NCBI GenBank assembly: GCA_965213925.1 | Contig: CBDCAM010000001.1 | Location: 1 to 64,000, forward strand | Length of the DNA stretch: 64,000 bases | Direction: 5' to 3' | Source: Trueperaceae bacterium | Lineage (GTDB): Bacteria > Deinococcota > Deinococci > Deinococcales > Trueperaceae | Part shown: piece by piece, positions 15,505 to 63,889 of the stretch | How the letters are laid out: each line of letters starts with the position of its first letter | Numbering within the stretch: the first letter of the stretch is position 1 | Notes under the pieces: model-generated | The model's input: the letters and a program-made list of their open reading frames with translations, nothing else | What the model was told of the DNA's origin: nothing | Databases searched by the model: none | Translations under genes and position numbers: made by a program

Positions 15505-15667
15505 TAGCCAACTCGCTTACTTTTTTGTATTAACCTCGGATGCTAGGGGATAAGCAACCTTCTCGGACTCGCATCCGAGCACAATCATTGCCGTAAAGTT
15601 CGCCTAGCACGTAAATACCTAAGTTCTCTACATCTTTGAGCGAACGGCTTTGTCTGTATAACAGGGG

Positions 15668-15825
15668 TAGCTGCTAGGGCGAGGTGTGAACCAGGCGTTG
15701 TCTGCCTCTAATGGCTTGAATGTGAGATTTCCCCTCGCCCTTAAGCAGCAAAAAGCGACTCGTTGCTTGATACCAGGCTGCTGACCTAGCTCAATCTGTT
15801 ACAGACGTGCACGAGTCGCTTCACA
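15668..15825 (+). ncRNA. IS110 bridge RNA (target-binding and donor-binding loops); ends approximate
   Basis: Stem 15670-15684/15733-15749 encloses GGCGTTGTC and AATGTGA; stem 15753-15763/15811-15821 encloses ATACCAGGCT and TACAGA; these match the target and donor junctions. Confidence 0.85.
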
Positions 15826-15844
15826 CCACCTTGGGAGGTCGTGC

Positions 15845-16804
15845 ATGTCCAGTATACAGAGGCTCATTACTATCGGTGTTGACCCGCATCCCACCACACA
15901 TACCGCTGCTGCGCTTGACGAGACCGGCAAAGTTTTGGAAAGTCTGACAGTCAGCCACAGCAGCAAAGGACTACAGAAGCTCGAAACGTGGGCGCAGGGT
16001 TTTGAGAAGCGGCGCTGGGCAGTTGAAGGTATCGGCAACGCCTATATCTACCCCTTCGTGGTGTCGTTACTCGGGGAGGGTGAAAAGGTCTTTGCTATCT
16101 CGCCTAATTTGACGAGCCAGTACCGAGCTAGGGGCAACCAGATGAAGAGCGATGAAGTGGATGCGGCTAACGCGGCCCGCGCCCTGCTTGCTAATCCCAC
16201 GCTCGGACCCTACCAACCTTCAGCGCCTCAGAAACAGGCTCAAGAGCTGACCCGGCACTATCAGCGGCTCAGAACCCAACTCAAGGCGAACGAGATGGCG
16301 ATGAAAGAGGTGGACGCAAGCATCAAAGCTCCGCTGCAGAGCGCCATCACGGGCTTGAAACAGGCTCTGGCTACTTTGGAAAAGCAGATGAAGGCTCTTG
16401 CTAAGAAATACGCTGCCCCGCTACTGGCCGAGCGGGGTGTCGGTCCTGTGGTGGCTTCGCTCCTGCTGGCCGAGGCGGGCTCGCCCGAGCGCTTCTCTTC
16501 TCAAGATGCCTTTGCCCTTTACGCGGGTTGCGCTCCCTTATCTAGGAGTTCCGGCAGAACAGCCAGAGTGCAGGTGAACTACAAAGGCAACAGAAGGCTC
16601 AACTACGCTGTTCACGTCGTTGCCTTAAATCGCATGCGGACCGACCAAAGAACTAAGGCCTTTCTAGCGCGTAAGAAAAACGAAGGGAAAACCCAGCGTG
16701 AGGCGATGCGCTGTCTCAAGACTTACATCGCTCGTGAACTTTTCGGGAAACTCAAGCAACTCAATCTACCACCGCTCGTCGCTCTTTATCCTGACGGGGC
16801 TTGA
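15845..16804 (+). CDS. IS110-family DEDD recombinase/transposase
   Basis: IGVD, AVE, KSDEVDA, GVGP, YAGCAP...SSG and GNRRL motifs; GGAGG RBS. Confidence 0.95.
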   Translation: MSSIQRLITIGVDPHPTTHTAAALDETGKVLESLTVSHSSKGLQKLETWAQGFEKRRWAVEGIGNAYIYPFVVSLLGEGEKVFAISPNLTSQYRARGNQMKSDEVDAANAARALLANPTLGPYQPSAPQKQAQELTRHYQRLRTQLKANEMAMKEVDASIKAPLQSAITGLKQALATLEKQMKALAKKYAAPLLAERGVGPVVASLLLAEAGSPERFSSQDAFALYAGCAPLSRSSGRTARVQVNYKGNRRLNYAVHVVALNRMRTDQRTKAFLARKKNEGKTQREAMRCLKTYIARELFGKLKQLNLPPLVALYPDGA

Positions 16805-16868
16805 CAAAGTTATACCAGGCTCACATTAACTCCGCGGTAGTTAGGGTGTCGTGTTAGGGTGGCCTCCC

Positions 16869-17570
16869 GTGAGTAGCGCCCTCTACAAACGCCACCGCTT
16901 CCCCGCTGAGATCATCAGCCACTGCGTCTGGCTCTACCACCGCTTCTGCCTTTCGTTCCGAGACGTTGAGGAACTGATGTTCGAGCGGGGCGTTGTGCTG
17001 AGTTATGAGACCGTCAGGCGCTGGTGTTTGAAGTTCGGGGGTGAGTACGCGGGAAGGCTCAAGCGCCGCAGGGCGCAGCCAGGAGACAAATGGCACGTCG
17101 ACGAGGTTTTCCTGAGCATCAACGGCGAATGGCGCTACTTGTGGCGGGCGGTCGACCAAGATGGCAACACCCTCGACATCCTGGTGACAAAGAGGCGCGA
17201 CAAGCGTGCGGCCAAGCGCTTCTTTCGCAAGCTGCTCCGGGCTCACGCTAAACCGAGGGTGGTTGTCACTGACAAACTACGCAGCTACGGGGCGGCGCTC
17301 AAAAAGCTGTTGCCCAACACCGAGCACCGCCAGAGCCGCTACCTCAACAACCGAGCCGAATGTTCGCACCAGCGGACCAGGCGACGAGAACGGGCGCTCC
17401 AGCGTTTCAAGTCCTCCGGCCACGCCCAACGCTTCCTGTCCGTGTTCGAACCCCTCAACACCCACTTCCGCCCGCCCCGCCACCTCCTCAAGGCCAGCCA
17501 CTATCGTCAGAAGATGCAGGAGTGCTTCTCGGCCTGGCGTGAAGTGACCGAGCAGCAGACAGGAGCCTGA
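16869..17570 (+). CDS. IS6-family transposase
   Basis: YKRHRFP, WHVDE, YLWRAVD, VTDKL and NNRAE motifs. Confidence 0.93.
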   Translation: MSSALYKRHRFPAEIISHCVWLYHRFCLSFRDVEELMFERGVVLSYETVRRWCLKFGGEYAGRLKRRRAQPGDKWHVDEVFLSINGEWRYLWRAVDQDGNTLDILVTKRRDKRAAKRFFRKLLRAHAKPRVVVTDKLRSYGAALKKLLPNTEHRQSRYLNNRAECSHQRTRRRERALQRFKSSGHAQRFLSVFEPLNTHFRPPRHLLKASHYRQKMQECFSAWREVTEQQTGA

Positions 17571-17646
17571 AAAGAGACCCTTTCAGTAGTCGGCGATGGA
17601 GCTTAGCGGTTGCTACAGCAAGTTAATGTGACAAAGCCCCTGCCCC

Positions 17647-20062: not shown

Positions 20063-20684
20063 GGCCTTGTCACGTTAACTTCTTCTAACCACGCTAATTA
20101 GGGTTTTCTGGTGTAAACAGGCACGTCTACTTATGCGGGTGCTGCCAGCTCGGCAACTTCACCCCAGATCGAGAACCGCTCGCGCATCTTCTGGCGGTAA
20201 TAGCTAGCTTTGAGGAGGTGGCGGGGCGGGCGGAAGTGGGTATTGAGGGGTTCGAACACGGACAGGAAGCGCCCTGCATGGCCGGAGGACTTGAAGCGCT
20301 GGAGCGCCCGTTCTCGTCGCCTGGTCCGCTGGTGCGAACACTCAACCCGGTTGTTAAGGTAGCGGCTCTGGCGATGCTCGGTCCGGGGCAACAGCTCTTT
20401 AAGCGCCGCTCCGTAGCTGCGTAGTTTATCCGTAACAACCACCCTCGGTTTAGCGTGAGCCCGGAGCAATTTGCGAAAAAAGCGCTTGGCCGCACGCTTA
20501 TCGCGCTTGCTCGTCACCAGGATGTCGAGCGTGTTGCCTTCTTGATCCACGGCCCGCCATAAGTAGCGCCTTTCACCGTTGATGCTCAAGAAAACCTCGT
20601 CGACGTGCCATTTGTTTCCTGGTTGCGCCCTGCGACACTTGAGCCTCCTTGCATGTTCGCCCCCGAACTTCAAACACCAGCGCC
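20063..20684 (-). mobile_element. 5'-truncated IS6 copy, close paralog of the 16869-17570 transposase
   Basis: Near-identical protein from KFGGE onward (ORF 20131-20673); IR GGCCTTGTCACGTTAAC at 20063-20079. Confidence 0.88.
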
Positions 20685-20760
20685 GTCGTTAACGCTTGAG
20701 CGTAGCGCACCTGCCCCAGCTAGAGTAGGAATGTGCCAGTCTGGTACAGGCTCTAAGGCC

Positions 20761-21694
20761 GGTTCTGGCAGGACTCGTTATGGGAGCGTGTTAGCCTTGC
20801 CCGATGACCTGCCCCCACTGCTCCCATGACCAGACAAGAGACCTCCAACAACCAACGAAACTCGGTTATAAACGCTACCGCTGTGATGGCTGCGGTAGGA
20901 CGTTTAACGAGAGAACGGGGAGCGCTTACAACTTTCTCGAGTTTCCGACCGACATCGTGCTGCTCGTGGTTCTTTGGCGGCTCAGGTATAACCTCACGCT
21001 TAGAGACCTCTCCGAGATGTTTCTGGAGCGAGGCTTTGTATTTACCCATGAAGCGGTCAGGGAATGGGAGAGGCGTTTCGCCCCTATCATGGCCGAGGAG
21101 CTGAGGAAACGGCGTAGCGGCAACCGGGCTAAGAAGTGGCATGTGGACGAGACGTATCTGAAGGTCAAGGGCAAGTGGTGCTACCTCTACCGAGCTACCG
21201 ATAAAGAGGGCAACCTTGTTGACGTGTGGCTGAGCAAAAAGCGCGATATGGAGGCGGCCAAGCGGTTCTTCGAGAAGGCGCGCTCTACCGCAGGCGAACC
21301 TCCCGAAAAGGTCACCACCGACGGTCATGACGCCTATCCTCGCGCTGTTCGAGAAACGCTGGGAGAGAAGGTTCAGCACCGCACCAGCCGCTACCTGAAC
21401 AACCGGCTCGAGCAAGACCACAGAGGTATCAAGGGTCGCTATAAGGGAATGCGAGGCTTCAAGAACTTCAACTCCGCCTCAAGGTTCTGCAACGCCTATG
21501 ATGGATTAAGGGACTACTTCAGGCCGCGAAGCCGTCCTTACGAAACTCTACCCCTTCCCGAGCAGCGCAGCCTCTACCTCACAAGGACGCAGTCGCTGAT
21601 GGCTGCTGTGGGAGGAATGTAGCCAGGCGTTTTTGGTGAAGCAGAGAAATGAAGTGTCCGCTCTGCTTCTGCCTGAGCCAGTTCTGACAGAACC
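20761..21694 (+). mobile_element. IS6-family element
   Basis: IRs GGTTCTGGCAGGACT / GGTTCTGTCAGAACT (13/15 match). Confidence 0.8.
20804..21622 (+). CDS. IS6-family transposase with N-terminal zinc ribbon
   Basis: CPHC...CDGC, WHVDETY, YLYRA.D, TTDG and NNRLEQDHR motifs. Confidence 0.92.
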   Translation: MTCPHCSHDQTRDLQQPTKLGYKRYRCDGCGRTFNERTGSAYNFLEFPTDIVLLVVLWRLRYNLTLRDLSEMFLERGFVFTHEAVREWERRFAPIMAEELRKRRSGNRAKKWHVDETYLKVKGKWCYLYRATDKEGNLVDVWLSKKRDMEAAKRFFEKARSTAGEPPEKVTTDGHDAYPRAVRETLGEKVQHRTSRYLNNRLEQDHRGIKGRYKGMRGFKNFNSASRFCNAYDGLRDYFRPRSRPYETLPLPEQRSLYLTRTQSLMAAVGGM

Positions 21695-63042: not shown

Positions 63043-63875
63043 GGTTGCGTCAAGTTGTTTGAGATGAGGTGACGTCTAGCTACGGCGGCCCGCTGCATCT
63101 GTAGCCCTTGCGGCCTTTTCTAGGAAGCTGACAGCGACAGCTCTGCCCATACCCCAAAATCGCTCGTCCAGTTGCGGCGGCGTAGGTTGGCGGGTGTGCG
63201 GGCACGGGTGTAACGGAAGAGATGGTTGACCTCGGCGTGGGTAAAGAGAAAACTTTGGGCACGACCCGAACCTCTAAAGCCTCGTTGCTGTCGTTCTTGG
63301 TCTCGCGTCGGCCGGTGGCTCTGCTCGACGAGGTTGTTCTGGCGCTCCGCCGCCGAGACGGTGACGTGCTCCGTCGCGCCTAGCTCGGGCAGCTCTCGAA
63401 GGGCAGCACCATAGCTCCTAAGGCCGTCGGTCACGATCTGCTCGGGGACATCTTGCTCGTCCAGCAGTCTGCGGAAAAAGCGCTTGGCCGCCTCTGTGTC
63501 ACGCTCCTTTTGCATGAACACGTCCAGCACCTCGCCATGCTCATCCACTGCCCGCCAGAGCCAATGGACCACACCGCCTAGCACTATACGCATCTCATCC
63601 AGGTGCCACGTCCTACCCCGCCTCGGCTTACGCTGACGCAGCGCCTCGGCTATGGCGGGTCCGAACCTGGCGCACCACGCCCTTACCGTCTCGTGACTCA
63701 CATCAACGCCCCGCTCGAAGAGCAGCTCCTGCACGTCCCTATACGAAAGCAGAAAGCGGTGGTAGAGGTAGACCGCATGCGAGATGACCGCTTTGGGGAA
63801 GCGGTAGCCCTTGGGTCGTTCGGCACTCTCGGTCATTGGGGCAGCCTAACCCATCTCAAACAACTTGACGCAACC
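63043..63875 (-). mobile_element. IS6-family element
   Basis: Perfect 24-bp IRs GGTTGCGTCAAGTTGTTTGAGATG at 63043-63066 and 63852-63875. Confidence 0.92.
63120..63836 (-). CDS. IS6-family transposase
   Basis: GYRFP, WHLDE, WLWRAVD, VTDGL and NNLVEQSH motifs. Confidence 0.92.
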   Translation of the reverse strand: MTESAERPKGYRFPKAVISHAVYLYHRFLLSYRDVQELLFERGVDVSHETVRAWCARFGPAIAEALRQRKPRRGRTWHLDEMRIVLGGVVHWLWRAVDEHGEVLDVFMQKERDTEAAKRFFRRLLDEQDVPEQIVTDGLRSYGAALRELPELGATEHVTVSAAERQNNLVEQSHRPTRDQERQQRGFRGSGRAQSFLFTHAEVNHLFRYTRARTPANLRRRNWTSDFGVWAELSLSAS

Positions 63876-63889
63876 CATCATGCCTGTTT

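Follow-up and report, generated by a model that had tools for sequence, protein, structure and literature searches.

Within the window (the 64,000-nucleotide stretch of DNA analysed here), an IS110-family element of 1,168 bp, including one copy of its core dinucleotide, occupies 15655-16822 on the forward strand and interrupts the left terminal inverted repeat of an IS6-family insertion sequence. Its ends were read from the restored repeat: excision of 15655-16822 leaves an exact 18/18 inverse of 17621-17638, and excision of 15653-16820 does so equally, the two intervals being equivalent because the TC core is present on both sides. Reading from left to right on the same strand, the junctions consist of bases 1-7 of the IS6 left repeat, which form the left target (15646-15652; the inverse of 17632-17638); the TC core of the left junction (15653-15654; repeat bases 8-9), the same dinucleotide being found at both ends of relatives; the left donor with the TC core of the right junction (16812-16820 and 16821-16822); and bases 10-18 of the repeat, which form the right target (16823-16831). 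The empty site is exact, with duplication limited to the 2-nt TC, and the non-coding ends of the element measure 190 bp on the left and 18 bp on the right. The original prediction had placed an IS110 element inside the IS6 left repeat at a TC core, and the exact restoration of the 18-bp repeat bears this out; all of the sequence strings quoted in it were likewise found where it had put them. Contigs from two sequencing runs align with the window up to 15645 (over 15528-15645), after which one of them diverges, and this break fits an IS6 left boundary at 15646. The 4.75-Mb assembly contains one copy of the IS110 element.

Without its insert, the host IS6 element (15646-17638) is 825 bp long and its 18-bp repeats are perfect. 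It has both an IS6-type DDE transposase and a repeat of the IS6 type, with GG at its start and G at position 7; the transposase gene (16851-17570, + strand; 239 aa) is intact in frame, matches PF13610 and scores 234 bits with NF033587 (cut-off 125). The right terminal repeat (17621-17638, - strand) is intact, unoccupied and the best match to the IS110 guides in the whole genome. A second IS6 element of the same type lies at 20063-20685 on the minus strand (5'-truncated; 90% protein identity), abutting a longer IS6-type gene at 20804-21622, and its right repeat at 20063 constitutes an empty target with two mismatches.

The IS110 recombinase (15845-16804, + strand; 319 aa) matches PF01548 and PF02371, scores 150 bits with NF033542 (cut-off 140), and is preceded by a Shine-Dalgarno-like GGGAGG at 15833 (+ strand). 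Its frame is intact and the catalytic residues are all in place, with D13, E61, D103 and D106 making up the RuvC-like DEDD set and S236, the catalytic serine, aligning with S241 of IS621, a distant relative by protein (phmmer E 7e-12). The 319-aa length had been put forward as a distinguishing, “compact” trait, which does not hold, given that the IS621 recombinase has 326 aa (PMC11208158). Assignment to the IS110 group as an IS621-type bridge system is well supported, since every feature of such a system that can be read from sequence is present. Membership of the IS1111 group, whose elements carry subterminal inverted repeats and usually a downstream non-coding region (PMC11187229), was considered and rejected: the long non-coding region lies upstream rather than downstream and the right end is only 18 bp, the subterminal repeats having been judged by eye.

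The left non-coding end is predicted to encode a bridge RNA. The segment 15668-15825 folds as two long stem-loops (-64.3 kcal/mol; z -4.92), namely a predicted target-binding stem-loop at 15670-15749 and a predicted donor-binding stem-loop at 15753-15821, both on the + strand. A consensus fold derived from 40 left ends (41 with distinct guide pairs, L105 being excluded) likewise contains two stem-loops with open internal loops and, in each, a small hairpin between the left and right guides; the guide loops that are open in this family consensus are partly closed in the single-sequence fold. Two-sided changes occur in 22 of the 28 consensus pairs, including all eight pairs of the outer helix of the target-binding stem-loop, and the donor-binding stem-loop is also backed by pair covariation. 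Overall, 89.5% of alignment cells pair, versus 30.7-52.3% in slid controls, the structure itself having been derived from the same alignment. A search of Rfam, with E values as high as 1 allowed, found no match.

Four guides can be read in the two loops, all on the + strand. In the target loop, the left target guide (LTG; 15694-15702) agrees at 8/9 positions with the left target plus core, the mismatch falling at repeat position 4, and the right target guide (RTG; 15719-15725) is complementary at 7/7 positions and is followed by handshake bases at 15726-15727, the first of which (15726) pairs with the last left-donor base. In the donor loop, the left donor guide (LDG; 15770-15779) is identical to 16812-16821, and the right donor guide (RDG; 15800-15805) is complementary to 15653-15658, with handshake bases at 15806-15807, the first of which (15806) pairs with IS6 repeat base G7. 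When the left end was dinucleotide-shuffled 20,000 times, equally good matches arose by chance at frequencies of 0.037 (LTG), 0.010 (RTG), 0 (LDG) and 0.031 (RDG), and all four arose jointly in none. The original prediction had described this same four-guide layout; its coordinates are confirmed, and the guides and fold are backed by comparative data. The donor-guide base at 15778 matches the last left-donor base (16820) in this element, a position that is mismatched in 27/28 guide sets.

The guides bear a close relationship to the IS6 repeat as it is described by Harmer and Hall (PMC6807381), in which the repeat is 14 bp long, G1, G2 and G7 are invariant and most variation occurs at positions 3-4. 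The bridge target spans repeat positions 1-14 exactly, the sole LTG mismatch lies at the variable position 4, and G7 is the handshake partner. The published consensus repeat has TT rather than TC at positions 8-9 (PMC6807381), so TC-core elements probably reach only TC-type subgroups of IS6.

The two ends also carry the halves of a putative junction promoter, a part of the system that the original prediction missed. A -35 hexamer, TTGACA, lies at the right end (16801-16806, + strand) and a -10-like hexamer, TATAAC, at the left end (15657-15662, + strand), and joining of the ends would place them 18 bp apart. The spacing of such hexamers is 17-18 bp in 28/40 distinct end pairs, and in the other 12 the first such hexamer occurs at 12 bp, a pattern that, at motif level, fits a promoter formed across the joined ends. 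A hybrid promoter, combining the right-end -35 with the inner IS6 repeat, was also considered and discarded, with at most 3/6 matches to a -10 hexamer by eye. Neither a circle joint nor an empty-site joint occurs among the contigs listed in four sequencing runs, contigs being a form of data that drops rare forms.

Relatives of the element provide the comparative evidence. Among the best 120 of 705 protein matches, the closest are 76-94% identical and lie mostly on short contigs, those with names belonging to Deinococcota; these closest homologues are mostly outside the DNA-level comparison. That comparison drew on 110 loci, comprising 30 from 19/364 genomes of the phylum, 64 metagenome loci and 16 genome loci. 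Ends were called by family motifs and guides by structural anchors, blind to the flanks, and both ends together with both target guides were obtained in 45/110 loci, giving 28 distinct guide pairs; the remaining 65 were incomplete at contig ends, were fragments or were too distant. Where both ends of a relative could be called, its length is approximately 1,120-1,200 bp, apart from a few of 1,341-1,466 bp (L043, L046, L051, L106 and L107), which carry an extra 180-300 bp of non-coding DNA between the gene and the right end. A tblastn search of plasmids returned only relatives of 44-46% identity, in three records, and a loose right-end pattern run over 401 genomes of another phylum matched in 58 of them with many control matches, was regarded as noise and contributed no loci.

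Across the 28 guide pairs, with the core excluded, agreement with the element's own flanks is 5.36/7 positions for the left guide and left flank (permuted 2.78, sd 0.24) and 4.93/5 for the right guide and right flank (permuted 1.92, sd 0.24), values reached in 0/20,000 permutations each; because the relatives are kin, these fractions overstate independence and are not strict probabilities. The right donor guide agrees with the first donor base in 28/28 cases and with the second in 27/28, while the left-donor match of 27/28 deserves little weight, being partly circular in that both strings were found by one motif. The handshake bases covary crosswise: in the target loop, the first of them complements the final left-donor base in 25/28 (permuted 20.0; fraction 0.0008) and the loop's own target in 1/28; in the donor loop, the first complements the final left-target base in 25/28, a count that includes L016 as a miscalled row (permuted 20.8; fraction 0.0011), and the donor in 1/28. 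The second handshake bases do not covary (11/28 and 5/28). Such cross-pairing with the non-cognate substrate is the pattern described for IS621 (PMC11208158). The original prediction had named guide/target covariation and a conserved fold as checks, and both are present across the relatives; it had also named copies at sites unrelated to the guides as contrary evidence, and the guides instead track their own flanks across the 28 distinct pairs. On these comparisons, the bridge-RNA reading of the element is well supported.

The same data bear on a different account, in which the target is chosen by the protein, or in which a shorter, target-only seekRNA is what functions and the matches in the donor loop are vestiges. 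ISEc21, for example, purifies mainly with a short RNA (PMC11187229). Against this, target guides vary with the flanks among near-identical proteins (L004, L005, L007 and L023), and both the donor guides and the donor-loop stems covary, leaving this account exceedingly improbable. A processed, shorter RNA would in any case be a variation on the bridge-RNA explanation and not a replacement for it.

Insertion at IS6 ends is recurrent. The right end could be called, with 130 or more bases following it, in 59 rows, of which 12 have an IS6-type right flank, representing 11 distinct elements (L021 and L095 are the same in sequence). An IS6 transposase lies within 900 bases in 10/11 of these and in 0/47 other rows; nine of the adjacent matches have E < 1e-39, that of L020 is a weak remnant (E 0.003), and for the eleventh element, L052, the flank extends only 140 bases. 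L120 and L121, both among the 11, were found through a pattern that required an IS6-type flank, though not an IS6 gene. Target guides are readable in 8/11 and match the flanks; in L043, which has too short a flank for the adjacency test, there is one mismatch in the right flank. Three of the 11 occupy left IS6 repeats and the rest right repeats, with the IS110 left end always facing the IS6 tip, and the insertions span Deinococcota and Acidobacteriota. The partner IS6 repeat was located approximately 820 bp away in 5/7 elements tested (10-14 of 14 matches), being absent in the truncated L107 and the decayed L020. Finally, a soil contig of approximately 90% identity, obtained in another study and differing at 110 of 1,112 letters, extends from the recombinase through the same right junction into an IS6.

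Recurrent adjacency of this kind would also be expected if IS110 and IS6 now moved together as a composite unit, such that co-transposition, and not repeated homing, explained the pattern. L106 and L120 are alike on both sides (IS110 943/947; host 591/599), a pair that is non-discriminating in itself and that co-transposition would accommodate; L051 and L052 share a right junction with different left flanks; and the outer 9 bp of the repeat are still at the tip. Within genome G364, in contrast, L106 and L107 carry IS110 elements that are 949/950 identical beside host IS6 sides identical at only 561/595 positions, indicating separate insertions into diverged IS6 copies. Both IS6 ends are occupied, the hosts differ in repeat type and phylum, and the window's IS6 lacks a flanking target duplication, although resolution of an IS6 cointegrate would remove that too. 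Composite movement is thus a very unlikely general explanation, though it could apply to some copies alongside homing.

Potential targets in the genome itself are less exclusive. The 14-mer defined by the guides has 18 sites within two mismatches, and the only site with one mismatch is the host's own right repeat. On the window's contig, C2 (127,737 bp), three of the four such sites are IS6 ends; the 4.58-Mb contig C1 has the other 14, none near any IS6 match, so the guides alone do not confine the element to IS6. All IS6 transposase matches (approximately eight loci, including 63043-63876 of the window) lie on C2 and none on C1. Empty, well-matching IS6 ends are found on C2 at 17638, 20063 and C2:115998; at the last of these, which belongs to another IS6, the left guide matches 9/9, while the right guide matches the host, and the guides appear to be set to a family-level IS6 consensus. 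The IS6 repeats of C2 include variants targeted by the relatives L003 and L020.

These observations raise the alternative that the element is RNA-guided, with IS6 ends merely one of several site types and its landing here a consequence of an IS6-rich contig. That 15 of the 18 sites are not IS6 ends, that the IS6 matches are confined to C2, and that L020 sits beside only a decayed IS6 remnant would all suit it. The adjacency contrast (10/11 versus 0/47) speaks against it, as does the finding that in three separate branches the guides correspond to whichever repeat variant the host IS6 carries, and it is accordingly judged improbable, if less so than composite movement.

The TC-core lineage is nevertheless wider than IS6, other branches occurring at an IS3 transposase codon, in the downstream non-coding part of a different IS110-type element and at repeat-like sites. 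The original prediction, that homologs would be flanked by IS6 repeats with a TC core, stands as regards the core and the recurrence of IS6 ends, and does not extend to the branches with other targets. For example, L022 and L029 (element at 1321-2476) are aimed at the conserved “GNCWDNA” (“CWDNA”) codons of IS3-family transposases, as is ISEc21. In L036 (1320-2466) and L044 (647), the insertion lies approximately 190 bp downstream from a different IS110-type gene and may fall within the guide-RNA region of that gene; this branch is nested among IS6-targeting elements, and L038, L039, L050, L070 and L103 have left flanks similar to theirs. Near 4902 of L118 (G361), the right-end donor sequence of the relative L002 breaks off immediately before its core, where another IS110-type gene follows, an arrangement suggestive of one IS110 having inserted in the end of another. 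Finally, in the branch of L031-L045, L053, L057 and L105, the right flanks begin with palindromic repeats, which we take to be REP-like.

In a quick unrooted tree of 40 rows (three short rows were skipped), the 12 rows with IS6 guides fall in three branches, and at least four changes are needed. On this quick tree, the hypothesis that IS6 targeting arose once and never changed afterwards was rejected (AU p 0.0001), in a test made after sight of an earlier tree; ancestral IS6 targeting followed by re-aiming and repeated origin are indistinguishable on an unrooted tree.

Taken as a whole, the boundaries, the core, the covariation of guides with flanks, the conserved fold and the repeated occupancy of IS6 ends, each read from sequence comparison, argue with a probability of roughly 0.9 for a bridge-recombinase insertion sequence of the IS621 type that carries, in its target loop, guides for the outer 14 bp of the terminal inverted repeats of IS6-family elements. 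By analogy with IS621, the element would also be transcribed, form a circle and catalyse recombination; the IS621 cycle, as described (PMC13626964), involves rare excision, a promoter at the circle junction and a bridge RNA, and favours insertion over excision. Rare excision at the two TC cores would release a circle, whose joined ends would bring TTGACA to 18 bp from TATAAC and drive an RNA of approximately 160-180 nt from the left end. The recombinase would bind both loops, the donor loop reading the circle junction and the target loop reading the bottom strand over repeat bases 1-9 and the top strand over bases 8-14. Exchange of strands at TC, helped by the handshake bases, would then insert the element between repeat bases 7 and 10, with its left end toward the IS6 tip. 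A repeat split by 1.17 kb is likely no longer usable as an IS6 end until the IS110 excises.

It is tempting to go further and regard this cross-phylum TC-core bridge lineage as a switch that occurs in nature and turns off IS6 elements reversibly and across the family, with guides that read exactly the 14 bp needed by the IS6 transposase, follow local repeat variants and have been repeatedly re-aimed among IS6 ends, IS3 catalytic codons and the RNA regions of other IS110-type elements. This proposal is tentative and somewhat more doubtful than probable; if true, the lineage would document how guides are naturally reprogrammed while insertion sequences are engaged in an arms race with one another. 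With or without it, IS6 ends join the mobile-element targets of RNA-guided IS110 elements, and the guides, core and handshake bases can be read directly. For a recombination assay, the lineage provides a ready-made, naturally occurring bridge system with a TC core, in which the right guide pairs over 7 bp and approximately 28 natural guide settings come with known substrates. Because major mobilisers of resistance genes belong to the IS6 family, natural interrupters of IS6 ends are of interest.

Insertion into the ends of other elements is an established habit of IS110 elements, and the mechanism is known. IS1383, for example, is an IS110-family element likewise aimed at the inverted repeats of another insertion sequence, reportedly inserting specifically in those of IS1384, a member of the IS5 family, so that the host differs. 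IS4321 and IS5075 are said to insert at a fixed position in Tn21-family terminal repeats and hence also use a fixed site in the terminal repeats of another mobile element, but they belong to the IS1111 group, with subterminal repeats, a typically downstream non-coding region and a different target. ISEc21 (PMC11187229) shares with the window element its IS110 group, an upstream non-coding RNA, a junction promoter and a target in another IS family, but that target consists of IS3 transposase codons and not a terminal repeat.

Only the choice of target, the IS6-end class, appears undescribed. The literature searched, the scope of which did not extend to ISfinder or subscription journals, yielded no paper on an IS110 element with an IS6 target; neither IS110 nor IS1111 occurs in the accessible text of IS6 reviews, including PMC7986276, nor IS6 or IS26 in the main text of the seekRNA paper (PMC11187229). 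The accessible supplements of PMC11208160 contain neither the term IS6 nor any of five DNA/RNA motifs searched, and one related protein, unnamed, appears in that paper's tree table. The TC core is natural, and the ortholog supplement of 10.1101/2025.05.14.653916 could bear on non-CT cores.

The closest known systems are IS621 and ISCro4/IS622 (PMC11208160, PMC11208158, PMC13626964 and 10.1101/2025.05.14.653916; PDB 8wt6 and 9t56). They have in common with the window element the RuvC DEDD residues and Tnp serine, an RNA from the left end that has two loops and contains four guides as well as handshake bases (predicted in the window element), and 14-nt substrates around a 2-nt core together with a junction promoter (at motif level in the window element). 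The known IS621-type systems, as described in these sources, use a CT core, 4-bp right-target pairing and a REP target, whereas the window element uses TC, 7 bp and the terminal repeat of IS6.
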